Positions 1,513-24,710 of a DNA stretch of 64,000 bases are shown here, in pieces (positions within the stretch are counted from its first letter, which is position 1; every line of letters begins with the position of its first letter). The notes beneath the pieces were generated by a model. It did no database searches and was not told the origin of the DNA. It was given only the letters and a program-made list of their open reading frames with translations. Made by a program: the position numbers and the translations under genes. The DNA comes from a virus. Location: the IMG/VR virus record IMGVR_UViG_3300032288_003949, positions 1 to 64,000 of that record; one strand, written 5' to 3'.

Positions 1513-1532
1513 GATTCAGTCCTCTCCGAGCC

Positions 1533-3209: not shown

Positions 3210-3704
3210 TTAGTTGTCGTGGCCCGCCTGATTCATGGCGAGTTGAAGTGCGTCGGAGAATGGACCTGCCCGTGCCGCGCTTTTCTCCCATTTCACGATC
3301 TCTGGATGCTCACCACTGCGGTCGATATCGGTTACCCATAGCTCTTGCCGTCCCGCTTCGCAGACCTGGACCATGAGTATTTCCTTGCGATCTGGGTGTT
3401 CTCTTGGCAGCGGGCCGTCTTTCGCCTGCGCTGGGTCGAGTGTCCATGCCATCTGGATCCGCGCCACGATGTTGGCGTTCATTTCTATCAGCGCGGCGAT
3501 GATCGTCGGCAAACCTTCTTGCTCCATAAGGCTCCTGTCGCCCGTGTCGGGATCGACAAGTGGCAGCAGGCAGAAACCTGCAGGCGCGTCGATGAGCAGA
3601 ATCGGCAGCCAGTCATGTTCTGGTGGCAGGTTCTCGCCTGCCGCTTCCGCTCGCTCCAGCGCTGCGTCACGGAAGTCTTCGAATGTCGGCGGCTGCTCAG
3701 GCAT
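3210..3704 (-). CDS. hypothetical protein
   Basis: 164-aa ORF overlapping the ligase stop. Confidence 0.6.
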   Translation of the reverse strand: MPEQPPTFEDFRDAALERAEAAGENLPPEHDWLPILLIDAPAGFCLLPLVDPDTGDRSLMEQEGLPTIIAALIEMNANIVARIQMAWTLDPAQAKDGPLPREHPDRKEILMVQVCEAGRQELWVTDIDRSGEHPEIVKWEKSAARAGPFSDALQLAMNQAGHDN

Positions 3705-4647
3705 CGATTACGCACTCGGCTGCAGGCTTGTCATCGCGGAGCTTGGCGAATTGCGGGTGCCGGAATCCGCCTGTGGGCATGATGCCCATGTGCTTTATTT
3801 CGATGACCTTGCCGAGCCATGCGTCGGGGTTGTCGGTCATGTGCTGGCGGGTCGTCATGTCCATGCCGCTGCACCGTCCCGTTTCGATCAGGTTGCCCTG
3901 CTGGTCGTATTGGCTGAAGATCACCGCTCCGACCATTCCGGCGAAGCCGTTCTCGCCAGGTTTGAAGCCTGTGACCACCACATCGATGTTGTCTTGCGGC
4001 TTAATCTTTGTCCAGCCGCCCCCGCGCTGCCCGCTTGCGTATCTCGCGGTCGTGTCCTTTATGACCATGCCTTCGAATCCTTGGGCGAGCAGGGCTTGCA
4101 CCGACTCGTCGTTTACTTCGACCTGCGGCACTAGCTGGATGCGATTCAGGCTGATCTTGTCGAAGAGCCGCTCCAGCAGGTCGCGCCGCTTTGTGTATGG
4201 CAGGCTTCTTGCGTCGATGCCGCCGTGTGCGATCAGGTCGAAGACCATGTAGGTGATTTTCTCGGACTTCGCGGCTGCCTTCGCCGTGCTGGATCCCAAG
4301 ACGCTCTGGACGGTTCCCCAATCGTGGGTCACTTGGCCGTCTTCGATGGTCAGGGCAACGGCTTCGCCGTCCAGCCATGTCCCTGTTGGCAGGTGTTCGC
4401 CAAGCTCGGCTTCGATCATGGGCAGGCTGCCGTCGTGTGACTTCGCGCTCCGCGTGTAGAGGTGGACTCCGTCGTCGGCGATGTGGGTCAGGAGTCGCCA
4501 GCCGTCAAGCTTCGGCTCGCCCACATATCGCGGGTCGGAGAAGTTGTCGGGACTCATGCCCTTCTTGAGCGCCTCGGCGTTCTGTGCCAGCTTCTCTGGG
4601 CTGGTCGGTGCTGCGTATTTCTGGGGTGCTGCGGTCGTGGTAGCCAT
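3697..4647 (-). CDS. lig: ATP-dependent DNA ligase
   Basis: EPKLDGWR (KxDG), LDGE, YMVFDL, EGMVIK, WTKIKP and OB-fold FRHPQF; start moved to ATG 4647 behind the SD AAGGAGA. Confidence 0.93.
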   Translation of the reverse strand: MATTTAAPQKYAAPTSPEKLAQNAEALKKGMSPDNFSDPRYVGEPKLDGWRLLTHIADDGVHLYTRSAKSHDGSLPMIEAELGEHLPTGTWLDGEAVALTIEDGQVTHDWGTVQSVLGSSTAKAAAKSEKITYMVFDLIAHGGIDARSLPYTKRRDLLERLFDKISLNRIQLVPQVEVNDESVQALLAQGFEGMVIKDTTARYASGQRGGGWTKIKPQDNIDVVVTGFKPGENGFAGMVGAVIFSQYDQQGNLIETGRCSGMDMTTRQHMTDNPDAWLGKVIEIKHMGIMPTGGFRHPQFAKLRDDKPAAECVIDA

Positions 4648-4806
4648 GTCTCTCCTTGGTCGGTTGCGCGATAGAACATAGCACATCTGGCGTATGCTAA
4701 AACTGGTGCGGTTTGGCGGCGGCGATTCATTTCTCAGTCTCCGACACTTCTGCCGCCGGATCTGCTACGATGTATCGCACAGTGCAATCCGATCAAGGAG
4801 GAAGTC

Positions 4807-5634
4807 ATGAGGGGAACCCATAGCAATCTAGTCGTCACCACAGTGACGGACGAGGCCACTGGCGAGGAGCGCCCGCTGTTCGCCTTTCCTGTCCAGATCT
4901 GCAAGGCTGTCGACAACAAGGAGGTCAGGTTCGACCGCCGTGCGCCTTCGGGCGGCGAGGTTGAGCAGCTTTACCGTGACTCGGTCACGGGCGAGATGCT
5001 CAAGAGCGGCGATCTCATTCGGGGCATCGCGACTGGGGATTCGTTCCAGCAGATTCCCGATGAGCAGATCAAGGCCATCGACGAGGCTCTCGCTTCCAAG
5101 GAGATCTGCGTTGAGCGCACGGTCGACTTGGACGATGTGCCGTTTGAGCGTGTGACGGGGTGCTACTTCGTGCAGGTTCCCGCCAAGGGCGGGGCGCACA
5201 AGTCCTACCGTCTGCTCTACGAGGCCCTTCAGGGGTCGGATGGTCAGTCGGCAAGGGCGCTGCGGGTCAAGTATGTCCCGCGCTCCCGTCAAAAGCTGGC
5301 TGTCATCTACGCCGACACCAAGCTGCAGTGCCTGATGCTGGTCACTCTTGACTACGCAGCGGCAGTGCGCGAGCCGGACGAGCAGGTGCTGTCGCATCTG
5401 CAGGCCGATGTGTCGCCGGAGATGGTCGGCAAGGCGCGGGCTGTCGTGGACGCGCTGGACTCGGAGGATCGTGGCGGCTGGGATGCGCCCATCGACGAGA
5501 CCATCGTTCGCCGTCAGGAGTTGGTCGAGGCCGCTCTCGCTGGCGAGGGCATCGAGGTTCCGGACGCCGCTCCGGCGCTGGATGCCAACACCGAGGTTGA
5601 GAACATGCTGGAGGCTTCTCTCGCTTCCCTGTAG
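4807..5634 (+). CDS. ku: Ku-like DNA end-binding protein (NHEJ)
   Basis: FPVQICKA..EVRF, D..TGE...DLIRG, YRLLYEAL, RSRQKLAVI, LMLVTLDY...VRE align by eye with the prokaryotic Ku core; SD AAGGAGG. Confidence 0.85.
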   Translation: MRGTHSNLVVTTVTDEATGEERPLFAFPVQICKAVDNKEVRFDRRAPSGGEVEQLYRDSVTGEMLKSGDLIRGIATGDSFQQIPDEQIKAIDEALASKEICVERTVDLDDVPFERVTGCYFVQVPAKGGAHKSYRLLYEALQGSDGQSARALRVKYVPRSRQKLAVIYADTKLQCLMLVTLDYAAAVREPDEQVLSHLQADVSPEMVGKARAVVDALDSEDRGGWDAPIDETIVRRQELVEAALAGEGIEVPDAAPALDANTEVENMLEASLASL

Positions 5635-5655
5635 TTTCGGGTTCTCCTCCCCGAA

Positions 5656-5690
5656 GACGAAGCCCCGCCATGTGCGGGGCTTTCGTCGTT
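5656..5690. terminator. bidirectional intrinsic terminator hairpin between convergent ku and ssb
   Basis: gacgaagccccgc-catgt-gcggggctttcgtc inverted repeat. Confidence 0.75.
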
Positions 5691-5704
5691 CTGGGGGGTC
5701 TTGC

Positions 5705-6115
5705 TCAGAAGGGAATGTCGTCTGTGGATCCCGACGGTGCGGCTGGTGCCGACACGGGGATATCCGAGGTGTTTCCGTTCTGTGACGCGCCTTCCTTGCC
5801 GCCCATGAATGCGACATTGTCGGCGACGATCTCTACCGCCTGCCGCTTGCCGTCATCTGACTCCCACTCGCGCCAGCGGAGCTTGCCTGTGATGGCAACC
5901 TTGCGGCCCTTGCTCATGTATTGGGCCACATTCTCGCCCTGTGATCCCCAGATGGTCACATCGAAGTAATTCGGTGCGTCCACCCACTGATCGCCCTGTT
6001 TCCTGCGGGCGTTGTTGGCGATCCTGAGCTTGCAAACCGACCCGCCTTGGGTCTGCTTGAGCTCTGGGTCGCGTGTCAGGTTGCCTGTGATGGCAACCGT
6101 GTTTATATCCTGCAT
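5705..6115 (-). CDS. ssb: single-stranded DNA-binding protein
   Basis: INTVAITGNLTRDPEL, KGRKVAITGKL, C-terminal DDIPF. Confidence 0.97.
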   Translation of the reverse strand: MQDINTVAITGNLTRDPELKQTQGGSVCKLRIANNARRKQGDQWVDAPNYFDVTIWGSQGENVAQYMSKGRKVAITGKLRWREWESDDGKRQAVEIVADNVAFMGGKEGASQNGNTSDIPVSAPAAPSGSTDDIPF

Positions 6116-7147: not shown

Positions 7148-7306
7148 TCATGCCGACCTTCCGCCTGTGACCACACCGAGAATTACTCCGGCGACCAATC
7201 CGATGGCGCTCGCTACGATGTCAATGGTGTTCGGAGCCGCGACGATCACAATCGCGACGGCGGTCAAGATGAGCAGCAAGCCCGCTTTCCCTTCAATGGT
7301 CTGCAT
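7148..7306 (-). CDS. 52-aa membrane protein with two TM helices (not in ORF track)
   Basis: MQTIEGKAGLLLILTAVAIVIVAAPNTIDIVASAIGLVAGVILGVVTGGRSA; TAATG overlap with the giant gene stop, abuts the next start. Confidence 0.7.
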   Translation of the reverse strand: MQTIEGKAGLLLILTAVAIVIVAAPNTIDIVASAIGLVAGVILGVVTGGRSA

Positions 7307-10300
7307 TACTGACCTTGCTTTGCCCTGAGTCGGTCGATGAGTTCTTGCCTTGACAGTTCGGTGTTCGGCGAAACGCCAAGTGCGTAGATGAGTTCGGAGG
7401 TGCTCATCTGATCGTAGGCCCCTTCATCCGCCTTGGCCATCGCCTCTTCTTCGGCTGCGCTCATTTCAGGCTGAACCTGTCCCATGCCGTCAAGCGGGCC
7501 GCCCATTGGAGATGCCATGGATTCGCTGTCACCTCTGAAGGCTGGGTTATTCTCCAGCTCAACACCGATCTCGCGGTATGCAGCATCAAGGTTCTGCCTT
7601 GCCCGAGTGATATTCTCTACGGGTGCGGCGTTGCTCACTTCGTAGTCACGGAGTTCGTCCCAAGCTGCACGGAGGTTGGCCTTAATCGCTGTCTTGGATG
7701 CCTCTGACCACCTAGGGTTGTCATCAAGGGCCTTGGAAGTCTCGTCCATTCTTGCCTTAATTGCATCTGCGTTAATGAACTGGCCGTCGTTCTCTAGTGC
7801 CGTGTCAAGGGTAAGCGCTGCTGTGTAGAGCGGGATGCGGTAGCTGTCACCGGCGAAGGTTTCGATTCCACCCGCCGTAAAGATGGATGCGGGATCGACG
7901 CTCTTGTTGAATCCGCTGTATCCGCCGTCGTACACTGGACCTTCGCCGTCGCCGATCTCTCCGGCGGGTGATGCCATCGGCTCCGCGCCTGTTGCCTTGA
8001 GCACTGCGGCAACGGTCTGCGGCGACTCGTTTTCGACATCGATGTCCACGCCCTTCTGTGCCAAGTCTCCGAGTGCAGCGATTACCTGAGCGCCATCCCA
8101 ACCGCCGCCAAGCTCCGATGCCACATTTGCGGCAGACTGTTCGAATGCCACTTCACCTGCTGCAATGGCAGCATCTTCTGGGGACATTCCTTCATCCACG
8201 GCAGGCACGGGCGCAGGTTCAGGCGTAGTCTCCGGCGTAGGTGCATCTTCGGTTCCGATGTTGCCCTTAATCGCGTCGTAGATGCCCTTTTCGCTCTCTG
8301 GCAGGTCAGCTACTGGTGGAGCTACTGGTGCGGCTCCAGGCTGGTATTGCGGCATGTCGACTTCTGGCAGGTTTATGCCACGCGACTCGGCTACTTCGGT
8401 GATCTTGGCCCATGCATCTGGGTCGGCTGCTGCGAAGGTCTGTCCTTCGTAGTTTGTGTCCGTCATCTGGTTAATCAGACCGAGCAGCTTGTCGTTGTTC
8501 ATCGCCTTAATGTTGCGGATGTTGCCCTTCGGAGACCTGGCGGGACTCGCGGTAGTGCCGTCCTGCGCCCAGTTTGCCACGGCCTTCTTGTTGGGCTTAG
8601 CGACCTTCTCCTTTGGAGTCGGCGCGGCTGGTGCTGCGGCTGGTGCTTCTGGTGCTGCGGCTGGTGCCTGTGATGGCAGATACTTCGGGTCAGACTCTGG
8701 CAGCGCGGAGCGTCGACCGTATTCCTGATTGACACGCTCCCATCCGTCTGGATCGATGGTGGCAAAGTCCTGCATTTCTTCGTAGAGCGGCAGGAACTTC
8801 TCGTTCTTCATCGCCTTGACATTCCGGATGTTGCCCTTGGCGGAGCGGATGGGCGAGCCAGCAGCGTAGGCGTCAAGGCCTAGCTTCACGCCTTCGACGG
8901 CCTGCTGGGTTGCGTCGTTGGGCTCTACACCAGCTGCTTCAAGCTCGGCTGCCTTCTCGTCGGTGTTCGGGACGAAGGTCGCGTCGACTTCTTCAGCGTA
9001 GTCGGGGTGCATGCCGCCAGTGCTGCGCGGAGCAAATCTCCAGTGAAGTATTCGCTTTGTTGGGCTGTGCGGCTTGCCAACCTCGGCATCGGGGTGCGGA
9101 TCGTCCTGAATAATATTTCCATCCGCATCAACAGGTTTAGCGATGTACCACTTGCCTTCTTTGTTGGTCGCTCGGTGAAGAACATAGGTGTAGCCGCCTA
9201 CATCGGCAAACAGCGTTCCGGCTGGCATCTGGTGCATCTCAACGGCATCGAGGTTGTCGGAGTAGTTGGCGGGGAGATCGACTGTCGACGCTGCGACCGG
9301 CGATGCCATGCCCTGCTCGTATCCGGCGAGTTCGTCGGGCCGGACTGCGGTCAGGTCGGCGAGCGAGAAGACATCCTTGTCATTGACAAAGCCCGCGAAG
9401 ACTTCTTCTGTGTAGTTAGTGCCAAGGAACTCTGGATCCTGTGAAGCGAGCGAGTCCAGCGCGTCTGCTACTTGGACGGTCACTGCGGCTGCGCGGTCAG
9501 GCGAAAGGCTCTCGGCTGCTACGGGGCCTTCGGAGTAGCCGTGCGCGATGGTCGGTTGACCTTCACCCGACTTAATCACGGTTCCGTGCGGCATGTAGAC
9601 ATTCCGACCCTCTGCAACCTGCTTCACTCGCGCCTTGTGTTCGATGGCAGCAGGCGACTTCATGCCGACTGGCACTGGCTGGTTGACTCTTACGCCGTCA
9701 AGCTGTCCATTCTCTACGCGCTTCAGGTCTTCTGCTGTAAGCGGACGAATCGTGTTCTTCGTCGTATGAACGGTCGGAATGCTTCGATGCAGGTAGCTGC
9801 GTGGAAGCTCGGTGTATGTGGTGCCGTTGGACAGCAGGATTTCTTGCGATGGGAAGGCCCGCTCTGGCATGTTGGGCGAGTCGACAGGCGTAATATCTTC
9901 AAGTGCAGCGCCCTCGTTCCCAGGTTGCATCGTGGCAGGATCCGCCGGTCGTGCGCGGTCGCGCTCGGCTGCGATGACATAGTCGAACGGGCTTTCCATG
10001 CCCTTCGGCTTCCATTCTTCCACCGTGAAGGTGCCGCCCGCTTCAGCGTCGCCTGCCTGTCCGTAGCCAATGGAGCGCCAGACAGGATTTGCCGCTGGAT
10101 CGTTGTCGCCTCCAAAGTCAATGTCAACATCGCCGTAGGTGTCGCCAGTAGCCGAAGGGGTGAGATTGCCCAAGGCCGCCTGTAGAGCATCAAAGCGAGC
10201 CAAGTCGCTAGTCCAACCTTCGTCTATGTTTTCTATCTCTACATCGATTTTGAAGGCTTTTCCGCCCGCCGTAATAATCATAGGCGTGTCGTCAAATTCG

Positions 10301-13300
10301 TCTTGGGGGCCGTCAAGAAGTTGAATCCCTAGACTCTCTGCCACATCGCTGTCGGCGTTCAACACCTGCCCTTGGATATCCTTCGTTGAGACAGGCAGGA
10401 TCGCGGGCGATGCCATGCCCGTGCCTGTTACTGCCCAATGCGGCAGGTCCTGTTCGCCCGTCGGGGTATCGACTACAACGCGCTTACTGGTCGCGGGCTG
10501 CTCGTATCCGATGACATCTTGGCGAAGGTCGCCCCCGCTGGTATCTGGGTCAACTGGTTGGTCGTAGTAGCGTTTAATCGTGCCTGTGGACCCATCGGGA
10601 AGCAGCACCGTTGAGCCAATTGGCCGCTCTGGTGTCGCGGGCGATGCCATGCCCCGAGCTTCTCCCTGCGACTGCAGCAGGTCTTCTCTGACTTCGATGA
10701 TCTGACCAGTTCCGGTGAGCTGGATGTCGTAGTAGTCGATGGGCCGTGAGCCGTCCATCTCGCGGCGGCTGCTGAGCACGATGCCGTCGTTCCCGCTCCA
10801 CGAGACTGCTTCGCCTTCTGCGTAGACCTTCGCCATGGAGATAGGCGACTGCATTCCGTCACCGCTCAGGACGCTTGCCGCCCGTTCAAGCAGGTCTGCC
10901 GCAGTCTCGCTCCGAGCGGTGTCAAGGACAACTCCCCTTTGCAGCTTCTGTCCAATGTCAAGAGCTTCGTTAGGGTTATCAGGGTCAATCTGTTCAAGCA
11001 TGTTGAGAATGACGGTTCCTACCACTTCCCGTCCGTTGCGATCAAGGTTGCCCTGCCGCAGTGCCTGTGCGTATGGGATCTGATTGGGCGACTGCATCGC
11101 ATTGGGAGAAGCCATGCCTGCGGGCTCTGCACCCTGCTCGGTGACCAGTTGGTAAAGGGCGTTGCCTACTACTTCGCTCTTTTCCAGATACTTGTCGTCC
11201 ATCTCTGGCAGGTCTTGGCGACGCTGTATTTCCTGAACGATGGCGGTTACGCCGTCTTGGTCAATCTGCTGTGCGTTGGCCTGTTGCATGGCTACTGCTA
11301 CCAGCTTCTCATTGTTCATGGCACCGAGATTCCGGACTCGGCCTGAGCCAGAGCGGATCGGTGAGACGCCTACTAGATCCTGTCTCTGCGCCCATGCTGG
11401 TGACTGCATGCCGCTGAGTCCCTGCGAGACGGCCTTGTTTCGCTTGCCTGCGGTGCGCCTAAGTGCTCGGTCTGAAATCGGCTTAAATGCAATCTGTTTT
11501 GCTTCAAAGTAAAGCTTGGCGGCGAGCTGTCGATCCTTGGCATTGAGCTGCTCTTGGTTCTTAAGTGCTCTTGCAATTCGCAGGATCTCGTTCTCGTCGC
11601 CCGTGAGTCCTTCCTTGCGGCGCACATTGTCGATCAGTATTCCTGAGCTCTTGTTTGCCAAGCCGCCGAAGCCCTTGGCATATTCGTCGGCATCTCGCTT
11701 GATGATTGCCGCTTTTGTGCGGCCACCGCCTGCGGGCGATGCCATTCCGGTCGGAATATCACCCGCAAGGACTTCATCTATTGCAGCCGTCATCTCGGAA
11801 ACGAGGCGTTGCACCTTTTCTTCGGTGATATCTGGATCTGTCTTCAGCGCCTCAAGATCGGAAAGGATGCCAAGGAATCGTTCTCCCCCTGTCTGGGAGA
11901 CCATCAGGACATTCTTGAGCGGGATAATTTCCGCATCAAGTTCGTCCTTGGCCTGCGCCACGCTTTCAGCTGACGGCTCTAGGCTATTGAGGGTGTTGCG
12001 GGCTCGGTATATGCCCTGAAGGGACTTGTATTCGCGTGGCGGAGCGCCCCATCCTGCGGGCGATGCCATGCCGCCGCTAATGCTCTGGAATTGAACTGAG
12101 CCACCAAAGTCTCCCTTTAGTGCCTTCTCTGCTTCGGTTTGAACCTGCATCGGCTCGTCCCTGAGCGCGATGTTGGAGAAGGCCACGACATACCCTTCAT
12201 CGTCCCTAACTTCTGCGCCGCCGTCGGGATATACGCTGACATAGCCTCCGTCAATTTTCTTCGTCGCGGAGTAGTTACTGCCAGGGGTGTCACGACCGAT
12301 ATCCCATCCGGTTCCGGCCCAAACCTCCAGAGCCCGACCAGCTTCTGGGCTATCCCCGCCAAACTTCTCCGCCATGGCCTCAACCTTTGTCGGGCCGCCT
12401 GCGGGCGATTCCATCATCGGCTCGTCGTCGTAGAGATCGTCCTCTTCGTAGAGATCGTAGTCGTCGTCTTCGTCGGTTTCGATGGTGATGTTGCCGATGC
12501 GGACCTGCCCTGAGTCGTCGTCGAATTCGACGGAGAAGGAGTTATCGAAGGTGACTCGCTGCATGCCACGCGGTGTGGGCTGGCCCTCTCCGGCTGGGAC
12601 CACACCGAGTAGTCCTGCGTCGACCGAGTAGCTCTTGCCGTCTGAGCCTGTGTAGGTGCCATCTCCGTATGCGGTGCCGCTCGCGGTGAACGCTGGGCCT
12701 TGCATGATCTTTGCGCCGTAGTTCAGCTCGTCGAAGCCTTCTGATGAGTCAAGCGCTTCTGTCCATGCGTCGCCATCGAAGGCGTAAGCTGGATCACCGA
12801 CGAAGTAGTCTCCTGCTGGCAGAAGGTCGGATGTCCGGCGCTCAACGATTCGCCGTTGCTCAGGCGTGAGATCGGCGGGCGATGCCATACCTCCCCTCCA
12901 GTTCCGGTCGAACCAGTCATCGACTTGTCGCGGCGAAATCACGCCTTGAGCCTCTGCGTATTCCAGGGCTGCTGCGACAACATGGTTCCACCATTGGTCG
13001 TTGACCATTGCTTCGGCTTGTTGCTCAAAGCTACCTGGGAAGTCGCCGCCATCATCCAGGCCGTAGCCTTCTACAACCGCATCGTCATACAGGATGTTCA
13101 GCACCTCATCCGTACTGCCGAACTCCGGAAGCTCGTCGATCTTCTTCATGACGAAGTCGGCTGTGGAAGAATCGAGCCCGATCATATCGAAGGCTGCTGC
13201 AAACGGGCTTCCCTCAGCTCCGACCGACCGCAACATTTCAGCTGCTTTTTCGGGATTGCGGCCTCGCTTGCCCCATCCATCGTTCAAGACGCTTACAGCG

Positions 13301-16300
13301 GGCGATGCCATGCCACCCTTTAGAGCGTTGTTATCGACTGCCCACTTGTAGACGCGCTCGCCGACTTCTGTATCAGTCGCTGCGCTGTCTGGGTAGCGGG
13401 CTTTAATGTCCTCAAGTAGCGGATCGATCTCATCTTCGCTGATTCCACCCTGCTTTTCAGCAGCTTGTCGGAGCGCTGCTCCAAGATACTTATTGGCTTC
13501 ATCCGCGTCCTTCCCTAGGAGCGCAAAGTCGTCCGAGTCATACGGCACTGGCTGTGCAGGGGTAGGAGTAGCCTTCATCGCTGCGGCTGATGCCGCTGCC
13601 TTTGCGCGACGAGCTTCTTCTTCGTCGCTTGGAAGTATCGCTGTTTTCTCGTAATCTACGAGATCGAGTTTGCCCGTGCCAAGTGCATAGTCATATGCCT
13701 GATCTCGCACCACCGTGTCGCTGGACTCGCTGAACGGTAGGGCCTCCAGGCCAGTCTCTAGCTCATCAGATGTAGTGTTGGGCGGCAGGTCGTCGATGAA
13801 TTTCTTGACCGCCATGTCGCCCTCGGCTGAGAACATGCCGAACTGTCCTCGGAACTCATCACCCTCGCCGCCGTAGATTCCCTCGGTAGCCTTTGCCAGC
13901 TCAGCCGTATAGTTATCGACATTGTCGGTGGGGATTGCAACTCGTGATTTCCAGGTTTCCTGTGCGTCTGCAATTCGCTCGCCGTAGGCGTAGCGGCGGA
14001 GCTCATCAGTTCCAGCAGCCTCATCGATGGCAGATCGTGTCGCGTCGTCGAGCCCATCGTACTTGGCTTTCAACTGGGCGCGGTTCTGCTGGTTGAAGCC
14101 GTATACGGGCGATGCCATGCCGGATGCTGCGAATCTCTCTTGGCGCTTAACCGCATCGTCCATCTGCCGCTCGCGGAGACCCTGATCTCCACCCACACCT
14201 GGAGTTTCGAACTTGAGCTCGTCGACCTGACTGTCAAACTCGGCCTGCGAGAGCCTTCCGGCTTGGCGATCCAATATCAGCGAGAAGACTTGTTCTTCGA
14301 AGTCTGCGAGCGCCTGTGCTTCCTTCTCAGCTACGATTCGATCTTCTTCATCAAAGGAGCTTGGGCCTACTGGCGATGCCATGTTGGATGGATCCTGCTG
14401 ATACCAGAAGTCAGCCAGGGTGTCTTTTGCAAATGCGCGCAGGTCATCGACCGGCGTATCCTTGACCAGAACACCATCGGAGAACTCGTCGTTCGGCTCT
14501 AGGCCATCAAACCGCTGAAGCCAGTCTCGGAGCTTTGCTTCATCAGCGGTGTCTATGCCCTTGTTACCACCAATGGCCTTCCATGCTCGCTCGTAGGTGC
14601 TTCCAGGCTCCACGCCTGTAGGTGACGCAGGCGATGCCATACCGGTAGGGCCCTCTGGATCATCGGGGTCTGCGACATCAAGGGTCATGAAGATTTCTTT
14701 TCGCAAGTCTGGAATCGCGCCCTCATAGTTTGCGTCCATCGCATTGGGATCGAGCGCATCCAGAATCTTGACCATTTCGTCAGGCGTATAGGAGGTGGTG
14801 TTGCGCTTCAAGCTTGGATCCCTTGGCTTCCAGCGTGGGCTCGGAGATCGAGTGGTTCCGAGTGCGTCGAATCCTGGCACTGCATCGCGCAAGATTTCAA
14901 GGTCAGCGTCGGTCCAGGTCCATGAGTTGTTGCGGCTCAGAGAGTCTGCGATTGCGGCCTTGACGGATTCTGCAGATTCATAGTCGCTGGGCGATGCCAT
15001 GCCGCTCTGCATACCGAAGCCGCGATACAGGTCCTGAAGCTCCGCGACAGCGTTCCGTCGCTGCTCAGGTGTCATGTCTTTCGTGACATCGCCAATTTTT
15101 TCGCGTAGCGCGAAGGCATCAGCAGGGGGGAGCTTCGCTAGTGCTGCGTTAGCCGCATCCATGTCGCCGTATTGAATGCCCCGCGCAGCTTCCTTGGCAT
15201 TGTTCTGAGCCGCGTCGATGGCAGCCTGTGCATCGGATTGCGTAGCGCCCTTGTCTACGAGTCTCTTGACAGCATCTGAGTAAGGGGAATCGCCTGCTGG
15301 CGATGCCATGCCCTCGGCCTGTGCCTCCAGGCGGGCCACAAGCTGATCGCGTAGGCGCTCCTCGGCATCGTCACGATACTTCTGTTTTTCAGCGTCCGAC
15401 AGCTTGTCGTAGTCCTTGCCGTCGTCATAGGCCAAGTCGTATGCGTCGTCCTCAACCTCTTTCGCGTATCGCTCGTCATTCATCTTCTCAAGTTCGTCGG
15501 GACTCGGATTCATGAATTGCGAAGCGTCTGGTTCATCAGCGACTCGCATCGCATCGATTTCTTGCTGCGTGTTCGGCGATGCCATGCCCTTTTCGTCGGT
15601 GTAGAGTTCGTATTCCGCGCCGATGCGGTCGGCCATTGCCTTCATTGTTCTCGCTGCGAATTCGTTGTTGTTAACTCCAAAGATGAGAGCGTCTTCCACA
15701 GGCTTTGCTACGCCCTTCACGCCCCGAAGCTCTAGGCCCGTGACCTTGCCGTCTTCGACGGTAATTGAACCCTCTGGTGTGTAATCTGCGCCGAGATACT
15801 TGACCTTCAGGTCATCTGGAAGTTCTGTGACGGCAGCGGGCGATGCCATGCCGGAAGCCTTCTTGTAGGCATCTGGCATCGCATCGATTTGTTCCTGCGT
15901 CATCTGCCTGCCGGTTGAGAACCGCTTGGAGAATTCATCGCGAGACATGCTCTTGGAGACGGTCGGCTCAAACGGACCAGCGGTCTGGGCTGGAGCGGTT
16001 CTACTTCCAGGCCGCAGATCGGCATCGTCCTGTCTGTCCTTGCCATCAGTCCACTGGGTGTTCGGCGATGCCATACCGATGCCGCGCTCAAACTCGCTGG
16101 ACTTGGATCCTGGAGCCTCCATGTCGCGCTCATCCTGCTCCATCTTGGCGAGCTTGGCCGCGTCGGAAGCGGTTCCCTGTGCGCCTCTGTTGAGCGTCAG
16201 CTTCCGCCCGTTAGCCAGCCTAATGCTCTTGCCGTCAGGTTCAATCTTCCCGCGTGTGCCTGCAAGGTCGACGCTATCTCCAGGCCGCAGCACCCGCCCG

Positions 16301-18666
16301 CGCCCCTTGGGTGCGAAGGTGCCGTCAGCAAGCCTCTTAATGGATGCGATCCGCGATGCGCTCCAGCCACCACGGTTCCCGCCGATGCTGCGGAGCCCGC
16401 TCATAGCCGCGCCACGGAGACGATTGTCGATGCTCGCCTCCTGCAGTTCTATATTCGGATACCGCTTCTTGACAGCGGCTCGCACCTTAGACTTTTCTTC
16501 GGGTGTGCCGAACTGAGCTACGCGAGCAAGGGCGTTACGGGCATGCGCCTCGTCATGGATTGGGTACTTCCGCTCAGACGGGAAGACGAATGCGCTTTCG
16601 GGGAGAGCCTTCTTTTCCTTGTAGGAGAGCTTGGCCTCTTCCATCTCCGGCGGCTCTATCAGTGCGATGATGGGGTTGTTGGGTGAGCCGCATTCGGGGC
16701 AGTACTTCTCGTCACCCTCTAGCTCAGCGCCGCATGAGCACTTCTCGCCCTCGCTCCAGCCACAGTTCGGGCAGTAGGCATGGTCGCCCTTGCCACAGTC
16801 GCAGGTTTCTTTGCCTTCCTGCTCGTAGCCTTCCTTCTCGTAATCTCCCTTGCCGCCCTTCTCAATCTTCACCTCGACTTCGACCTTCATGCCCTCTTGC
16901 ATGTCGGACATTTCGGACTCCCAGTCATCGCAGAGCATGTTGGGGCCTACGGAGTGATCACCGTGCTTCGTGCATTTCCCGTTCTCGTAGTACTCGCAGG
17001 TTTCACAGCGCATGTCTCCAGCGCGGGCCTCGCGTAGGTTCGGCGGACCCTCTGGTGCAGCGACTGCATTGCCGTCTGTTGCGGCCTCTGCGTCGCCTGC
17101 GTCAGACATGGCATCTTCCCGCAGGTTCTCCCAGTCAGGCACGAAGGCTTCGCGCATGTTGAGCGGGCGGCCAGCAGGACGCTTGGCTCGGTCTAGCAGG
17201 AAGTTCATGTCTTTCTTAGTCATCTCTCCCACCGGCTTGCCCATCTTGTCTTGCATCGCGGCTGCGGTTTGTGCGCCGACAATGCCGTCCACCTGCAGAT
17301 TGTTCATCTGCTGGAACTGTCTTACGGCGGCCTCGGTTGCAGAGTCGAACTTGCCGGAAGCATTTTGCATTCCCAGATCCTTCTGGACACCGCGAACCGC
17401 TGCGCCCTTTGAGCCAACGGTTATCCACCTTCCGCCGCGTCCTCTTGGGTGCTTCTTCTCAAACTCAGGGTCTTCCACCTGTCCACGGGGATTGCCCTGC
17501 TTATCGTAGGCAATCTTGCCACCTGGCCCCATGCGAGCGTTGCGCCACTTGGCGTAGGAGCTCAGCGCTGGGGATCCGCCAGCGGATTCTTCCAGCTGGT
17601 CGTTGGAAACCTTGCCGTTGAGCTTCTTCTGGGTCTTAGGTCCGGCTACGCCGTCTGCCTTGAGTCCGATGCGGCGCTGGATTGCCTTGAGTGCTCGCTC
17701 AGTATGGATCCCGAAGACGCCATCTACGCCCGCATCGCCGACGCTTGCCTCCATGATCCAGAGCTGGGCCTGAAGCTTGGCAACGGCTTCTCCCTCCGCC
17801 CCACGCTGGAGCGACTCCTGCATCTGCGCTGCGGCCATGTTGTCGACAAGGTTCGGATACTTGCGCCCTGCCTTCTTCGCCCGTGCCTTCGCAGCGGCCT
17901 TCTGCTTATCGGTCAGCTTCTTGCCCTTCTTGCCCTTCGGGTTCTTCTTCTCCCACGGCGGCGTGTCTTCTGCCATGTCGCCTTCGCTGAGCTGTCCGAA
18001 GGACTCTGCAAGTGCGCGAAGCTCGTCGACTTCGTCAGCGAGCAGGTCGGCAACCTTCTTCATATCGCGGGGCTCTGCTGCGGGGCCACCAAGCCGTCCG
18101 ATCTTGACTGACTCCGACAGGTCTGCCTCCATGAGCTCAATCGCCTTCTTGACGATCTCCTGCTTACCGACTGTCTTCGGCTCGCGGAGCAGCGGGAGCA
18201 TGCCTTCGGCGACGATGAGCCGCTTCTTGACGAGTTGTCCGATCTCCTTGGCGACCTTGTCATCGCAGTGCATCTCCATGAGATCGTCGGCTGCGGTCAG
18301 ATCAAAGGCCTCTTGGAGTTCTGCTGTTTCCTTCAGAGACTTGGCTGCGGTCTTCGCCTTGGACTTGGCTCGCTTGGCCTCCCAAGATGCGACAGCGGCA
18401 CAAGCCTTGGCGCGGGTCGTGGGCTTCAGGTCACCGCCGTTCCAGTTCTTTCCGGTTGAGCACCAGCGCTTTGTCGTGGCGACGGCGGAAGCGATGGCCT
18501 GACCGATGGGCCGCCCGCGCTCGTAGTGCATGTGCTTTGCGATCCGTTCGATGTAGCTCGGAAGACCGCCCGTCTTGTCCACCCAGTTCTGCTTGCCAGG
18601 GACACGCTCCAGATCGGGATAGACCCGACTGCTTACTTCTTGGAGTTCGTTACGAGAAGGTGGCAC
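7306..18666 (-). CDS. giant 3786-aa modular virion-associated polyprotein (two PG-binding domains, Cys/Zn modules, then about 24 M-x-S-P-linked modules)
   Basis: uninterrupted ORF; PG_binding_1 motifs (DGVFG..T..A...Q...GL.ADGVAGPKT; FQQ..NL.VDGIVGAQT), CxxC clusters, HPRG.GGRW, repeated GMASP. Confidence 0.85.
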   Translation of the reverse strand: MPPSRNELQEVSSRVYPDLERVPGKQNWVDKTGGLPSYIERIAKHMHYERGRPIGQAIASAVATTKRWCSTGKNWNGGDLKPTTRAKACAAVASWEAKRAKSKAKTAAKSLKETAELQEAFDLTAADDLMEMHCDDKVAKEIGQLVKKRLIVAEGMLPLLREPKTVGKQEIVKKAIELMEADLSESVKIGRLGGPAAEPRDMKKVADLLADEVDELRALAESFGQLSEGDMAEDTPPWEKKNPKGKKGKKLTDKQKAAAKARAKKAGRKYPNLVDNMAAAQMQESLQRGAEGEAVAKLQAQLWIMEASVGDAGVDGVFGIHTERALKAIQRRIGLKADGVAGPKTQKKLNGKVSNDQLEESAGGSPALSSYAKWRNARMGPGGKIAYDKQGNPRGQVEDPEFEKKHPRGRGGRWITVGSKGAAVRGVQKDLGMQNASGKFDSATEAAVRQFQQMNNLQVDGIVGAQTAAAMQDKMGKPVGEMTKKDMNFLLDRAKRPAGRPLNMREAFVPDWENLREDAMSDAGDAEAATDGNAVAAPEGPPNLREARAGDMRCETCEYYENGKCTKHGDHSVGPNMLCDDWESEMSDMQEGMKVEVEVKIEKGGKGDYEKEGYEQEGKETCDCGKGDHAYCPNCGWSEGEKCSCGAELEGDEKYCPECGSPNNPIIALIEPPEMEEAKLSYKEKKALPESAFVFPSERKYPIHDEAHARNALARVAQFGTPEEKSKVRAAVKKRYPNIELQEASIDNRLRGAAMSGLRSIGGNRGGWSASRIASIKRLADGTFAPKGRGRVLRPGDSVDLAGTRGKIEPDGKSIRLANGRKLTLNRGAQGTASDAAKLAKMEQDERDMEAPGSKSSEFERGIGMASPNTQWTDGKDRQDDADLRPGSRTAPAQTAGPFEPTVSKSMSRDEFSKRFSTGRQMTQEQIDAMPDAYKKASGMASPAAVTELPDDLKVKYLGADYTPEGSITVEDGKVTGLELRGVKGVAKPVEDALIFGVNNNEFAARTMKAMADRIGAEYELYTDEKGMASPNTQQEIDAMRVADEPDASQFMNPSPDELEKMNDERYAKEVEDDAYDLAYDDGKDYDKLSDAEKQKYRDDAEERLRDQLVARLEAQAEGMASPAGDSPYSDAVKRLVDKGATQSDAQAAIDAAQNNAKEAARGIQYGDMDAANAALAKLPPADAFALREKIGDVTKDMTPEQRRNAVAELQDLYRGFGMQSGMASPSDYESAESVKAAIADSLSRNNSWTWTDADLEILRDAVPGFDALGTTRSPSPRWKPRDPSLKRNTTSYTPDEMVKILDALDPNAMDANYEGAIPDLRKEIFMTLDVADPDDPEGPTGMASPASPTGVEPGSTYERAWKAIGGNKGIDTADEAKLRDWLQRFDGLEPNDEFSDGVLVKDTPVDDLRAFAKDTLADFWYQQDPSNMASPVGPSSFDEEDRIVAEKEAQALADFEEQVFSLILDRQAGRLSQAEFDSQVDELKFETPGVGGDQGLRERQMDDAVKRQERFAASGMASPVYGFNQQNRAQLKAKYDGLDDATRSAIDEAAGTDELRRYAYGERIADAQETWKSRVAIPTDNVDNYTAELAKATEGIYGGEGDEFRGQFGMFSAEGDMAVKKFIDDLPPNTTSDELETGLEALPFSESSDTVVRDQAYDYALGTGKLDLVDYEKTAILPSDEEEARRAKAAASAAAMKATPTPAQPVPYDSDDFALLGKDADEANKYLGAALRQAAEKQGGISEDEIDPLLEDIKARYPDSAATDTEVGERVYKWAVDNNALKGGMASPAVSVLNDGWGKRGRNPEKAAEMLRSVGAEGSPFAAAFDMIGLDSSTADFVMKKIDELPEFGSTDEVLNILYDDAVVEGYGLDDGGDFPGSFEQQAEAMVNDQWWNHVVAAALEYAEAQGVISPRQVDDWFDRNWRGGMASPADLTPEQRRIVERRTSDLLPAGDYFVGDPAYAFDGDAWTEALDSSEGFDELNYGAKIMQGPAFTASGTAYGDGTYTGSDGKSYSVDAGLLGVVPAGEGQPTPRGMQRVTFDNSFSVEFDDDSGQVRIGNITIETDEDDDYDLYEEDDLYDDEPMMESPAGGPTKVEAMAEKFGGDSPEAGRALEVWAGTGWDIGRDTPGSNYSATKKIDGGYVSVYPDGGAEVRDDEGYVVAFSNIALRDEPMQVQTEAEKALKGDFGGSVQFQSISGGMASPAGWGAPPREYKSLQGIYRARNTLNSLEPSAESVAQAKDELDAEIIPLKNVLMVSQTGGERFLGILSDLEALKTDPDITEEKVQRLVSEMTAAIDEVLAGDIPTGMASPAGGGRTKAAIIKRDADEYAKGFGGLANKSSGILIDNVRRKEGLTGDENEILRIARALKNQEQLNAKDRQLAAKLYFEAKQIAFKPISDRALRRTAGKRNKAVSQGLSGMQSPAWAQRQDLVGVSPIRSGSGRVRNLGAMNNEKLVAVAMQQANAQQIDQDGVTAIVQEIQRRQDLPEMDDKYLEKSEVVGNALYQLVTEQGAEPAGMASPNAMQSPNQIPYAQALRQGNLDRNGREVVGTVILNMLEQIDPDNPNEALDIGQKLQRGVVLDTARSETAADLLERAASVLSGDGMQSPISMAKVYAEGEAVSWSGNDGIVLSSRREMDGSRPIDYYDIQLTGTGQIIEVREDLLQSQGEARGMASPATPERPIGSTVLLPDGSTGTIKRYYDQPVDPDTSGGDLRQDVIGYEQPATSKRVVVDTPTGEQDLPHWAVTGTGMASPAILPVSTKDIQGQVLNADSDVAESLGIQLLDGPQDEFDDTPMIITAGGKAFKIDVEIENIDEGWTSDLARFDALQAALGNLTPSATGDTYGDVDIDFGGDNDPAANPVWRSIGYGQAGDAEAGGTFTVEEWKPKGMESPFDYVIAAERDRARPADPATMQPGNEGAALEDITPVDSPNMPERAFPSQEILLSNGTTYTELPRSYLHRSIPTVHTTKNTIRPLTAEDLKRVENGQLDGVRVNQPVPVGMKSPAAIEHKARVKQVAEGRNVYMPHGTVIKSGEGQPTIAHGYSEGPVAAESLSPDRAAAVTVQVADALDSLASQDPEFLGTNYTEEVFAGFVNDKDVFSLADLTAVRPDELAGYEQGMASPVAASTVDLPANYSDNLDAVEMHQMPAGTLFADVGGYTYVLHRATNKEGKWYIAKPVDADGNIIQDDPHPDAEVGKPHSPTKRILHWRFAPRSTGGMHPDYAEEVDATFVPNTDEKAAELEAAGVEPNDATQQAVEGVKLGLDAYAAGSPIRSAKGNIRNVKAMKNEKFLPLYEEMQDFATIDPDGWERVNQEYGRRSALPESDPKYLPSQAPAAAPEAPAAAPAAPTPKEKVAKPNKKAVANWAQDGTTASPARSPKGNIRNIKAMNNDKLLGLINQMTDTNYEGQTFAAADPDAWAKITEVAESRGINLPEVDMPQYQPGAAPVAPPVADLPESEKGIYDAIKGNIGTEDAPTPETTPEPAPVPAVDEGMSPEDAAIAAGEVAFEQSAANVASELGGGWDGAQVIAALGDLAQKGVDIDVENESPQTVAAVLKATGAEPMASPAGEIGDGEGPVYDGGYSGFNKSVDPASIFTAGGIETFAGDSYRIPLYTAALTLDTALENDGQFINADAIKARMDETSKALDDNPRWSEASKTAIKANLRAAWDELRDYEVSNAAPVENITRARQNLDAAYREIGVELENNPAFRGDSESMASPMGGPLDGMGQVQPEMSAAEEEAMAKADEGAYDQMSTSELIYALGVSPNTELSRQELIDRLRAKQGQ
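7508..16074 (-). repeat. in-frame dispersed repeat ATGGCATCGCC (G-M-A-S-P linker); about 24 M-x-S-P copies, 15 identical at DNA level
   Basis: + strand ggcgatgccat at 9299, 10406, 10640, 11735, 12059, 12878, 13301, 14108, 14372, 14630, 14990, 15299, 15575, 15839, 16064, plus variants. Confidence 0.9.
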
Positions 18667-19727: not shown

Positions 19728-19737
19728 GCCCTTCAGA

Positions 19738-24402: not shown

Positions 24403-24710
24403 CCACGCTTCAGACAGACACCTTGCGGGCCATTTCCGCCGATTCCTACGAATGGGATTCGGAGGCGGAGGGGAATGTTGGCGCGTCGAAGGGTCGCGGT
24501 TTCATCATTGTGCGGCGGGATGCTCCTGTTAAGGACATCCTGCTCGCCAATGGCCGTCCAGGAGCCGGATCTCCTGTTCTTGCGGAGGTCTGGCTGGAGG
24601 CTCGCGGCGCGATGCGGATCAACTTCACCGTGACGGAAGATCTGGAGGGCATTGACCCGATTGAGTTCTCTGGCCTGCTGGAGCGGGCCGAGAACGAACT
24701 CTGTTCCTAG
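24399..24710 (+). CDS. hypothetical protein
   Basis: GTGA overlap; converges on the giant gene. Confidence 0.6.
   Translation: MTTLQTDTLRAISADSYEWDSEAEGNVGASKGRGFIIVRRDAPVKDILLANGRPGAGSPVLAEVWLEARGAMRINFTVTEDLEGIDPIEFSGLLERAENELCS

Follow-up and report, generated by a model that had tools for sequence, protein, structure and literature searches.

Prohead proteases recognise short motifs, namely L/I-x-E in the internal proteins of T4 and A/S/G-x-E in the ejection proteins of SPN3US and phiKZ. Polymorphic toxin loci and MuF-fused toxin loci exchange a single C-terminal toxin tip, for which orphan cassettes downstream are often the source, and among polyproteins those of nematodes consist of repeats of one protein and those of RNA viruses have a fixed gene content. 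The giant multi-domain proteins called polyvalent proteins occur in phages and conjugative elements (Iyer, Burroughs, Anand, de Souza and Aravind, 2017; PMC5512222); 2-15 domains have been described for them, and many of their phage genes lie close to the head genes for portal and MuF. Packaging and delivery along with the DNA are assumed for them, processing by embedded peptidases has been proposed, and recombinational cassette variability has been raised as a possibility; the same text mentions polymorphic toxin loci and MuF-fused phage toxins, and the word 'linker' is absent from it (PMC5512222).

The window analysed here, 64,000 nucleotides of the IMG/VR record IMGVR_UViG_3300032288_003949, derives from an uncultured phage, probably an actinophage. 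It contains three giant genes, G1, G2 and G3, bracketed by the portal and capsid genes within the head-morphogenesis region (Table 1). With a probability of about 0.6, G1 can be read as encoding a head-region polyprotein of the polyvalent-protein kind, in which a short linker would serve as a processing signal and the uniformity of the linker DNA would be a trace of module accretion or conversion. The product runs from an N-terminal backbone through 24 linker-delimited modules to a C-terminal backbone. The N-terminal part, m00, contains a GKQNWVDKTGGLPSYIERIAKH domain, a Lys-rich segment, two peptidoglycan-binding domains and Cys-rich segments, and it holds the only Pfam matches of G1, PG_binding_1 (two copies, 1.2e-23) and a sub-threshold DUF6582. 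It is about 50-57% identical to P0003, P0004 and P0005, and its N-terminal domain is found in many phages within proteins of 100-1500 aa that have no arrays. The C-terminal m22, with repeated SP(I/V)RS..GN(I/V)RN.KAM.N.K motifs, is 46% identical to module a13 of P0003 and present too in the array-less orthologues of L013 and L014. Since these more distant orthologues keep the m00 and m22 backbone and have neither linkers nor modules, the array is an insertion zone.

Table 1. Features of the window, with residues given for modules of the G1 protein and linkers named by the position of their ATG
Feature	Position	Strand	Description
Major capsid protein	451-1512	minus	
Head decoration protein	1533-1910	minus	
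Scaffold-like protein, 401 aa	1910-3115	minus	downstream head gene
ATP-dependent DNA ligase	3697-4686	minus	Pfam DNA_ligase_A_M 3.4e-27
Ku	4807-5634	plus	Pfam Ku 2e-15
SSB	5705-6115	minus	Pfam SSB 2.3e-29
G1	7306..18666	minus	3786-aa giant ORF, GTG start
Module m22, residues 3120-3563	7978..9309	minus	conserved C-terminal backbone
Module m10, residues 1927-2084	12415..12888	minus	embedded full-length copy from a widespread stand-alone small-protein family
Module m00, residues 1-864	16075..18666	minus	conserved N-terminal backbone, no MxSP linker
15 exact ATGGCATCGCC linkers	9299..16074	minus	portion of G1 array; ATGs at 16074, 15849, 15585, 15309, 15000, 14640, 14382, 14118, 13311, 12888, 12069, 11745, 10650, 10416, 9309
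Nine deviant G1 linkers	7516..12414	minus	following nine rows
Deviant linker	12414	minus	MESP (ATG GAA TCG CCC)
Deviant linker	11409	minus	MQSP
Deviant linker	11115	minus	MASP (GCT TCT)
Deviant linker	11097	minus	MQSP
Deviant linker	10854	minus	MQSP
Deviant linker	9999	minus	MESP (GAA AGC)
Deviant linker	9663	minus	MKSP
Deviant linker	7977	minus	MASP (GCA TCA)
Deviant linker	7518	minus	MASP (GCA TCT)
G2	24707..30052	minus	1781-aa giant ORF
G3	30543..38522	minus	2659-aa giant ORF
Portal protein	40982..43027	minus	phrog_10963 at 4e-32
Phage tRNA(CAU)	43851-43923		
Large terminase	52651-54375		

The G1 frame holds 24 M-x-S-P sites, 18 of them MASP. The initial annotation had drawn attention to the uniform DNA of the latter, and a codon count bears it out: 15 of the 18 read exactly ATG GCA TCG CC (ATGGCATCGCC) and 17 use GCA, with the outermost exact copies at 9299 and 16074, the limits it had given. 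Exact 11-mers occur 17 times in the window, all on the minus strand (15 in G1 and two in G3), where shuffled windows give an expectation of 0.06 and no shuffle reaches 17. The 17-mer GGCATGGCATCGCCCGC occurs five times, and the conserved DNA extends only from -3 to +13 around the linker ATG, with no similarity between the flanks. The suspicion that GCA-TCG is unexpected from codon use was correct as well. Outside the linkers of G1, GCA makes up 36% of Ala codons and TCG 14% of Ser codons, giving P=1.3e-17 for at least 15 of 18; genome-wide, GCA accounts for 47% of Ala after an internal ATG and TCG for 28% of Ser before Pro, and the context-adjusted P is 3.4e-11. At the MASP sites of G2 and G3, GCA-TCG is used in 2/12, matching the 13% expected from context (G1 versus G2 and G3, Fisher's test, P=5e-4). 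No codon or codon-pair bias, gene-wide usage included, accounts for the degree to which the linker DNA of G1 is homogenised, and the uniformity is specific to G1 alone. A search of IMG/VR for the exact 17-mer returned no array elsewhere and six single, chance-like matches.

In m01-m13, a block found in this phage only, 12 of the 13 linkers carry the exact 11-mer, and deviant linkers start m14, m20 and m21, three of the four modules with orthologues in a sister clade. The canonical linker is found in one of these four old shared modules and in 14 of the 20 others, a weak association with an estimated P of about 0.1. The uniformity might be a historical accident, m01-m13 having been imported recently as one piece from a donor whose linkers had a single recent origin and not having drifted since. 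Uniform linkers in one gene of one phage only, a length of 3786 aa in all four records of the protein (contigs of about 80.9 kb and 35.8 kb) and a GC3 fairly even over the modules (0.57-0.78) would fit, but canonical linkers also stand outside the block, at m18, m19 and m22, and the donor itself would need a process giving unrelated modules identical linkers, so that the question is only moved; the accident is an unlikely explanation.

The same linker recurs in the other giant genes with varied codons, in four M-A-S-P sites of G2 (GCA TCC, GCT TCA, GCA TCA, GCG TCG) and in 11 M-x-S-P sites of G3, only the two 11-mers counted above being exact. MxSP is thus present in all three giant genes of the phage and, with the whole 80.9-kb genome and the contigs of relatives checked, restricted to giant genes. 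In the sister clade the linker is M-A-T-P-T, both in P0003 and P0004, which are G1-type, and in P0164 and P0165, which are G3-type; P0003 and P0165 are taken as one genome on the basis of equal longest contigs (31680 nt for both) and shared sources, not of sequence. L010, with 16 M-A-T-P-type linkers, and L049, with nine, use mixed codons in them. Between the MASP phage and the MATPT clade, the linkers of orthologous giant genes have changed in step, with GMASPV versus WMATPT at m22 and MASPNIF versus MATPTFD at the last G3 module. Because G2, G3 and the sister clade keep the linker without fixing its codons, it is mainly a peptide-level signal and not a DNA site, and the occurrence of MATPT with free codons in both giant genes of the sister clade points to a reader that serves the whole phage and is most likely a processing protease.

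The linker ATGs could instead be internal translation starts, perhaps served by the phage tRNA-Met, so that modules would be made separately. An invariant Met, the tRNA(CAU) gene and the conservation of the nucleotides right after the ATG in G1 are compatible with this, but those nucleotides are unconserved in G2, G3 and the relatives, no consistent Shine-Dalgarno sequence precedes the ATGs, and in 3786 codons no stop interrupts the frame between modules, which makes such starts very improbable.

Module content changes between close relatives. The shared modules of P0003 and P0004 are 96-100% identical, and the two differ by three whole-module presences or absences and one replacement, all with edges inside linkers. 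Between P0164 and P0165, which are 97-100% identical, two modules have been replaced, and each replacement has its edges at a linker or within 13 residues of one. The L010 phage is 91% identical in the capsid protein, 82% in the scaffold-like protein and 74% in Ku, and it shares only m14, m20, m21 and m22 of the array, at 30-47% identity, or four of the 24 linker-bounded modules plus m00. Module content turns over very fast. Shared modules always keep their order among relatives, and no reordering was seen. The initial annotation had proposed that recombination at the 11-17-bp repeats inserts, deletes or reorders modules; its observation is confirmed and its interpretation partly supported, linker-bounded indels and replacements being found and reordering not. 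The comparison of homologous genes that it had suggested as a check thus had a positive outcome.

Taken further, this proposal would make the linker DNA a functional recombination site and MASP only its translation. The identical 11-mers with sharp edges and non-homologous flanks speak for such a site, as do the linker-bounded indels of the relatives and a contig in L011, which begins exactly at a linker ATG beside a replaced cassette. It fits poorly with the peptide being kept with free codons in G2, G3, L010 and L049 and co-varying across unlinked genes, with the fixed module order, with the 17-mer being nowhere reused as an array and with G1-type arrays sharing no module with G2- or G3-type arrays. 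Since cassettes turn over in precisely those relatives without homogenised linker DNA, identity over 11-17 bp is not required, and a dedicated DNA site is unlikely. Just downstream of G1 lie Ku, ligase and SSB (3697..6115). Adjacent Ku and ligase would suit a DNA site, but these genes are syntenic in relatives with and without arrays; they could possibly provide the end-joining enzymology for joins at microhomology.

The G1 modules had been described as unique, and all-against-all BLASTP agrees, the sole relation being that of m14 to two internal repeats of m22. Of two spacers thought to resemble stand-alone phage proteins, the LPAGDYFVGDP module (m10) does so, matching positions 4-135 of the 140-position profile phrog_20074 at 2.4e-23, and the search for relatives of the GMFSAEGD module (m08-m09) found nothing. 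A representative search gave 1519 matches at E<=0.001, and the 150 matches listed all fall on m10, mostly as proteins of 120-170 aa aligned nearly end to end. The AlphaFold model of m10 has a pLDDT of 82, with low confidence in the first 20 and last 18 residues, which adjoin the linkers, and a fold search gave no PDB match. The suggested capture of free-standing genes thus gains support from m10: at least one G1 module is a captured, or shared, free-standing protein.

If the linker is a cleavage site, its protease was not identified in family searches. G3 contains a zincin-like HEMTH motif, spotted by eye only, in a region without match in Pfam and PDB sequence searches, and Pfam detected no MuF domain in G3. 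MxSP is absent from the capsid, head decoration, scaffold-like and portal proteins, so a classical prohead protease that trims the capsid would need a second specificity; the scaffold-like protein has no family match, and its predicted model is unusable (pLDDT 35). The invariant Met counts against a protease too, being unusual for a protease site. The linker may instead be read and left uncut, as a mark for proline-directed Ser/Thr phosphorylation or glycosylation or as a packaging docking motif on one beads-on-a-string chain. The missing protease and the absence from capsid and scaffold-like proteins would agree with this, as would the Ser-to-Thr switch between the clades, which preserves the hydroxyl, and kinase-like modules in G3, one module alone scoring barely over the Pfam cut-off for PI3_PI4_kinase (27.6 vs 27.1); the G3 homologues P0166-P0169 match Zeta_toxin and 2'-5' RNA ligase in Pfam. 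An uncut mark is nevertheless distinctly unlikely: the motif lies always at module edges and never within a module, near-adjacent linkers in the G1 and G3 arrays are 4-9 residues apart (three form a near-contiguous run in G3, MASPVEMASPMASP), relatives of m10 work as free proteins of 120-170 aa, and there is no evident purpose for 24 unrelated domains in a 400-kDa chain left uncut.

Under the preferred reading of G1 as a processed polyprotein, an old backbone (m00 and m22) would have taken in, between its halves, an array of about 22 unrelated modules of 70-270 residues, each opening with a G-M-A-S-P linker. The linker would act at the protein level as the recognition site of a phage-wide factor, most likely a protease, which would cut the three giant proteins into separate small ones travelling in the capsid or acting early in infection, and its sequence would co-evolve with that factor, as MASP in this phage and MATPT in the sister clade. 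With modules self-contained between identical signals, their gain, loss or replacement would be harmless to the rest. The uniform linker DNA of G1 would be a by-product of recent module addition: joins or conversions at a linker would copy its DNA, leaving the canonical 11-mer in young modules and drifted linkers in old ones. In agreement with this, the one linker pair of L010 that is identical over 15 nt (ATGGCGACCCCGACC) flanks the variable cassette b04. The uniformity is thus best read as the trace of recent linker-mediated accretion or conversion.

Integron cassette arrays likewise have ordered unrelated units, a short repeat between them and unit-wise gain and loss, but 'integron-like', as the locus had been called, holds only as an analogy, since no integrase and no attC-like inverted-repeat structure were found among the scanned ORFs; the repeat here is translated and conserved as a peptide, the units are in-frame protein modules and not genes, and relatives turn over cassettes without DNA-identical repeats. 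Polymorphic and MuF-fused toxins likewise replace modules between genes that are otherwise almost identical, identity breaking off sharply at a conserved junction, whereas the swaps here affect many internal modules, every one enclosed by two identical peptide linkers, and orphan cassettes were not observed. In viral and nematode polyproteins (for example, nematode polyprotein allergens, PMC3079579), a long product is also split by a repeated short site; the units here, in contrast, are unrelated to one another and change between close relatives. The internal and ejection proteins cut by prohead proteases, for which a literature search returned PMC5694885 and PMC10052503, are comparable as small head-carried proteins that are released into the host and have a short phage-specific motif at which they are freed or trimmed. 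In T4, SPN3US and phiKZ, however, each has its own gene and capsid and scaffold proteins are cut at the motif too, whereas here about 24 units share one ORF and the motif is absent from the capsid, scaffold-like and portal proteins. Polyvalent proteins resemble the locus in joining many unrelated effector-type domains in giant phage proteins near head genes. G1 differs from them in having no hallmark domains by Pfam and up to 24 modules against 2-15 domains, in a linker that differs between sister clades and in placing a fixed linker of 4-5 residues, common to three genes, at every module edge.

The source IMG/VR record is linear, 80.9 kb long and estimated to be 68% complete, with the window forming its first 64 kb. 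It belongs to a tailed phage, as its terminase, portal and capsid genes indicate, and the minus strand holds nearly all of its genes. The three giant open reading frames, G1, G2 and G3, have the portal gene on one side and, on the other, the genes for the scaffold-like, decoration and capsid proteins (451-3115). The head region also contains, in the interval between G1 and G2, a NUDIX hydrolase gene (19176-19814) and a gene for a DUF932 protein (20241-21329). A 313-aa minus-strand ORF at 38781-39722, which is of low complexity, rich in Arg, His and Pro, and has no family matches, seems to be an open frame that arose by chance, not a gene. A single phage tRNA-Met, with anticodon CAT, is found at 43851-43923 (ARAGORN); a tie to the invariant Met codon of the linkers would be conjectural.

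Coordinates of the head genes, the giant genes and the genes adjoining G1
Feature	Coordinates	Strand	Length	Location
Capsid protein, Mu-gpT-like	451-1512			
Head decoration protein	1533-1910			
ATP-dependent DNA ligase	3697-4686	minus		head-gene region, just downstream of G1
Ku	4807-5634	plus		head-gene region, just downstream of G1
SSB	5705-6115	minus		head-gene region, just downstream of G1
G1	7306-18666	minus	3786 aa	
G2	24707-30052	minus	1781 aa	
G3	30543-38522	minus	2659 aa	
Portal	40982-43027			
Large terminase, gpA-type	52651-54375			

G1 contains 24 in-frame M-x-S-P sites, 18 of which read M-A-S-P, and these linkers delimit its modules, which follow the N-terminal m00 and include the C-terminal backbone m22. 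Direct counting confirmed the initial annotation in that the exact sequence ATGGCATCGCC is present at 15 of the 18 M-A-S-P sites and GCA at 17 of them, and the first and last exact copies in G1 lie where it had placed them. Across the window the exact 11-mer occurs 17 times, always on the minus strand, compared with 0.06 expected from shuffles. The conserved DNA spans only positions -3 to +13 around the ATG (GG[C] ATG GCA TCG CC[C GC]), with flanks that lack similarity; the linker core of G1 amounts to 14-17 nt, GGCATGGCATCGCC(CGC), and nothing is conserved beyond it. Outside the linkers, GCA accounts for 36% of Ala codons and TCG for 14% of Ser codons in G1, giving P=1.3e-17 for 15 of 18. Preferences for the ATG-GCA and TCG-CCN pairs are real, as this genome uses GCA for 47% of the Ala that follows an internal ATG and TCG for 28% of the Ser that precedes Pro, but they and plain codon bias are far too weak to explain the uniformity: even after adjustment for this context, P=3.4e-11 for 15 exact linkers out of 18, so GCA-TCG is not merely a preferred codon pair. 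Tandem duplication of a module with its linker is likewise ruled out, because the modules are unrelated and no DNA likeness reaches beyond -3 to +13. The spacers are indeed unique, BLASTP between G1 modules having detected a relationship only between m14 and two internal repeats of m22. As for a widespread mobile or recombination site, the 17-mer has just six single matches in IMG/VR that look like chance, located in ORFs of 46-213 aa with one MxSP site apiece. By composition, the linker flanks of the G1 array are not clearly more disorder-prone than the remainder. Near back-to-back linkers, 4-9 residues apart, are present in G3 (MASPVEMASPMASP, 31865-31906), G1 (MASPNAMQSP, 11097-11126) and G2 (MASPAPLGPMASP, 29800-29838); these could be remnants left where modules were lost, or copies made by slippage.

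M-x-S-P also marks module edges in G2 (n=4) and G3 (n=11), where it is written with mixed codons, including GCA TCC, GCT TCA, GCG TCG, GCA AGC, GCC AGC, GCT TCG and others. GCA-TCG is used at only 2 of the 12 MASP sites of G2 and G3 together, which matches the 13% expected from context and differs from its use in G1 (Fisher P=5e-4). Throughout the 80.9-kb genome, MxSP is confined to the three giant genes, save for single matches resembling chance, and the capsid, scaffold-like, decoration and portal proteins have no such site. Only three giant homologues of G1 emerged when 5.8 billion proteins were searched. Two of them, P0003 (2827 aa) and P0004 (2598 aa), carry M-A-T-P-T at all module edges, and the third, P0005 (2708 aa, encoded on an 18,091-nt Logan contig), carries (E)-M-A-S-P-(G/D) plus a few F-A-S-P. 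Homologues of G3 split likewise, with M-A-T-P-T in P0164 and P0165 and G-M-A-S-P in P0166-P0169. P0003 and P0165 probably belong to one phage genome, given that their longest contigs are of equal length (31,680 nt) and that they have the JGI source in common. In addition, the contig encoding P0164 (L049) and a contig with a P0004-type fragment (L011) derive from one sample. Individual edges can be followed between the clades: the m22 edge reads GMASPV in G1 versus WMATPT in the MATPT clade, the first linker of G3 reads GMKSPA versus DMSTPT, and its last reads MASPNIF versus MATPTFD. To judge from these sequences, orthologous linkers have changed in step across the giant genes. The DNA of the MATPT linkers is uniform neither in L010, the contig encoding P0004, nor in L049. 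A change at about 25 sites in two unlinked genes, with synonymous positions left free, is the outcome expected of selection by a trans-acting reader of the peptide, and not of DNA conversion. The linker serves chiefly as a peptide signal, and modules can turn over without identical linker DNA. When IMG/VR, the GTDB genomes and the phages of GenBank were searched for near relatives of G1, only the MATPT-clade contigs L010, L011 and L049 and distant orthologues that lack the array turned up.

Turnover itself is evident between closely related arrays. Compared module by module, P0003 and P0004 are 96-100% identical, with two modules of 49 and 67 aa present only in P0004, one of 101 aa only in P0003, and one replacement of 429 aa versus 187 aa; all 8 edges of these differences, which involve b02, b04, a04 and a06/b07, fall inside a linker. 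In the G3-type pair P0164 and P0165, which are 97-100% identical, one module is exchanged for a 40%-identical version and another for an unrelated one, and identity breaks at a linker, 3 residues after one, exactly at one, and 13 residues before one. Homologues therefore show the module indels at linkers that the initial annotation had proposed to look for. Cassettes are gained, lost and replaced as units, but the reordering that it also envisaged was not seen among the shared modules, as m14, m20, m21 and m22 (G1 versus P0003) and m05 and m10 (G1 versus P0005) are collinear. Modules common to G3 and its homologues also keep their order, and no exchange between G1-type and G2- or G3-type arrays was detected at E<1e-4. 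The contig L011 (IMGVR_UViG_3300044641_003558) starts, at 1-15, exactly at the ATG of a MATPT linker just downstream of the cassette replaced between P0003 and P0004, as would be expected if the assembly broke off at a variable junction where the population is mixed. In L010, the only linker pair identical over 15 nt (ATGGCGACCCCGACC) flanks b04, a variable cassette of P0004, a post hoc observation for which we estimate a chance of about 3 in 120. The four records of the G1 protein, from contigs of two sizes (about 80.9 kb and 35.8 kb), are all 3786 aa long and differ at no more than 3 internal residues, thus giving no direct sign of continuing instability. Residues 2721-2722 of G1 (10501-10506, in m18) are Tyr-Glu in the window and Ala-Thr in the other records, P0002, P0006 and P0007, an adjacent double substitution.

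More distant orthologues of G1 occur on contigs L013 and L014, in phages with a 64-66% identical capsid protein. These orthologues measure 1476-1507 aa and comprise m00 and an m22-like C-terminal part, with the linkers and other modules absent, which identifies the array as an insertion zone inside an older backbone. The phage of L010 is closer, with identities of 91% for the capsid protein, 82% for the scaffold-like protein, 80% for the ligase and 74% for Ku, and only four array modules, 30-47% identical, are common to it and G1. Measured by these identities, module turnover is fast against a 91%-identical capsid. Deviant linkers (MQSP, MESP, MKSP, with other codons) start 3/4 of the old shared modules of G1, while in the m01-m13 block, unique to the phage of G1, 12 of 13 linkers carry the exact 11-mer; this pattern fits recently added modules carrying freshly copied linker DNA, in a contrast between old and new that is weak (P about 0.1 by our own estimate). 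A motif of about 25 residues, SP(I/V)RS..GN(I/V)RN.KAM.N.K.L, occurs twice in m22 (7978-9309) and once in m14 (11116-11409), and as a conserved backbone element it recurs in P0003 and P0004 as well as in the L013 and L014 orthologues that lack an array. The N-terminal domain of G1 (NWVD..GGLP.YI..IA) is found mid-protein in the 1300-aa gp58 of the cultured Microbacterium phage Leaf (L050:6406-10308), which has no repeated linker and whose gene sits between those for a MuF-like protein and the major capsid protein.

Some spacers had been likened to stand-alone phage proteins. This resemblance holds for LPAGDYFVGDP, in module m10 (residues 1927-2084 of G1), but was not confirmed for GMFSAEGD, in m08, as a word-indexed search for short, stand-alone relatives of m08-m09 returned none. 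Module m10 matches phrog_20074 over nearly the whole 140-position profile, and the search of representative sequences gave 1519 matches at E<=0.001. All 150 matches listed fall on m10, and these relatives are mostly proteins of 120-170 aa matched from about residue 5 to the end. Its AlphaFold model, built from 61 sequences, has a confident core (pLDDT 82), with poor first 20 and last 18 residues, which adjoin the linkers. The module has no Pfam family, and its confident model has no match among solved structures in the PDB. At least one module, m10, was captured from, or is shared with, a free-standing protein, as had been suggested. The model of the initial annotation, in which linker DNA drives cassette shuffling inside one ORF, consequently survives in its linker-edged module turnover and its capture of m10, but not in treating the linker as a DNA element whose identity turnover requires.

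No protease family match was obtained with Pfam or PHROG in any ORF scanned. The 401-aa scaffold-like protein, whose gene lies upstream of that for the decoration protein, combines a conserved domain at its N-terminus with a coiled-coil tail; it has no family match, and the AlphaFold model of the N-terminal domain is unusable (pLDDT 35). Since MxSP is absent from the capsid and scaffold-like proteins, a prohead protease of the classical kind could cut the linkers only by means of a second specificity. The linker may instead be a mark that is read and not cleaved, such as a site of proline-directed Ser/Thr modification or a docking motif. Domain searches of G1 placed only PG_binding_1 above the Pfam cut-off, with a sub-threshold match to DUF6582. 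PI3_PI4_kinase lies just above the cut-off in G3 when its module is scanned alone, and G3 homologues contain Zeta_toxin and 2_5_RNA_ligase2 (Pfam). HEMTH, MuF-like Cys/His and ART-like motifs in G3 and G2 were recognized by eye only and are motif-level leads; Pfam and PDB sequence searches detected no MuF, zincin or ART domains. The G3 N-terminus and the HEMTH module (G3 residues 329-860), which together with the 401-aa protein is a candidate linker reader, have no Pfam matches, and in the PDB sequence search the former gave a non-significant best match (E=0.48) and the latter no match at all.

In the most likely mechanism, which we infer for the cleavage, packaging, delivery and joining of G1 modules, the three giant proteins would be polyproteins of the polyvalent-protein kind. 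A single factor serving the whole phage, most probably a protease, would read their MASP linker and free the modules as separate small proteins in the head or after entry. With two copies of the same signal around each module, its gain, loss or swap would be neutral for its neighbours, which would account for clean edges and fast turnover. The DNA identity peculiar to G1 would be a trace of recent module addition, in which joins or conversion tracts at short linker homology copy the linker DNA, and the phage Ku, ATP-dependent ligase and SSB could supply an end-joining route. These three genes are syntenic in L010, L011 and L013, and in L014 only Ku and the ligase are seen. Their occurrence in relatives without uniform linkers and in relatives without arrays leaves end joining as one possible route only, and Ku and ligase as a trait specific to the homogenized array are ruled out. 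A dual role for the linker, to which we give roughly one chance in five, is an improbable extension: the peptide would act as the processing signal, while the identical DNA would provide microhomology for in-frame joining of broken or foreign DNA by Ku, ligase and SSB or by the replication machinery, making an in-ORF capture system through which small genes that stand alone elsewhere, for example those of the m10 family, become parts of an injectable polyprotein. If this were true, captured modules would be expressed, packaged and released without signals of their own, as a protein-level counterpart of the integron for anti-host effectors.

Should the linker be a processing site, each stretch between two MASP (or MATPT) marks would represent one deliverable protein, so that the limits of dozens of unknown small phage proteins would come at no cost, and these proteins would be flagged as likely virion-borne or early-acting effectors, and thus as anti-defence candidates. 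The very fast turnover of modules against a 91%-identical capsid marks the array as an arms-race locus. Its design also shows a way for a phage to acquire effectors that need no promoter, start site or packaging signal of their own. A linker tolerating any neighbour, combined with a dedicated cutting factor, could serve in building multi-protein cargo, and the DNA uniformity of G1 offers a concrete case, open to experiment, of in-frame, exon-like shuffling guided by microhomology in a bacterial virus.

Among known systems, integrons have cassettes that are gained, lost and reordered as units; the arrays of the giant genes show unit-wise gain, loss and replacement, and their shared modules are collinear. 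The integron-like array of the initial annotation is only an analogy, because no integrase, attC-like site or reordering was found and the repeat is conserved as protein. None of the window ORFs scanned, a set covering part of the small ORFs, gave an integrase match; by inspection the linker core of G1 is not an inverted repeat of the attC type, and the junctions of its relatives have no conserved DNA. In its working, G1 would be akin to the internal and ejection proteins that a protease trims in T4 and phiKZ-like phages, but G1 is one chain, with a motif private to the giant genes. Prohead-protease substrates have their cleavage motif in capsid and scaffold proteins as well, where MxSP is absent in the phage of G1. 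The closest class is that of the polyvalent proteins (Iyer et al. 2017, PMC5512222). Like them, G1 joins many unrelated domains in one phage polypeptide (24 modules, unrelated save m14 and m22) and is encoded in the head-morphogenesis neighbourhood, but Pfam detects in it none of the hallmark domains of the class (such as MuF, zincin-like peptidase, ART, kinases or nucleases). PMC5512222 nowhere uses the word "linker" in its text, and we found no earlier description of such a code; an explicit linker code thus appears to be the addition that G1 makes to the polyvalent-protein class.
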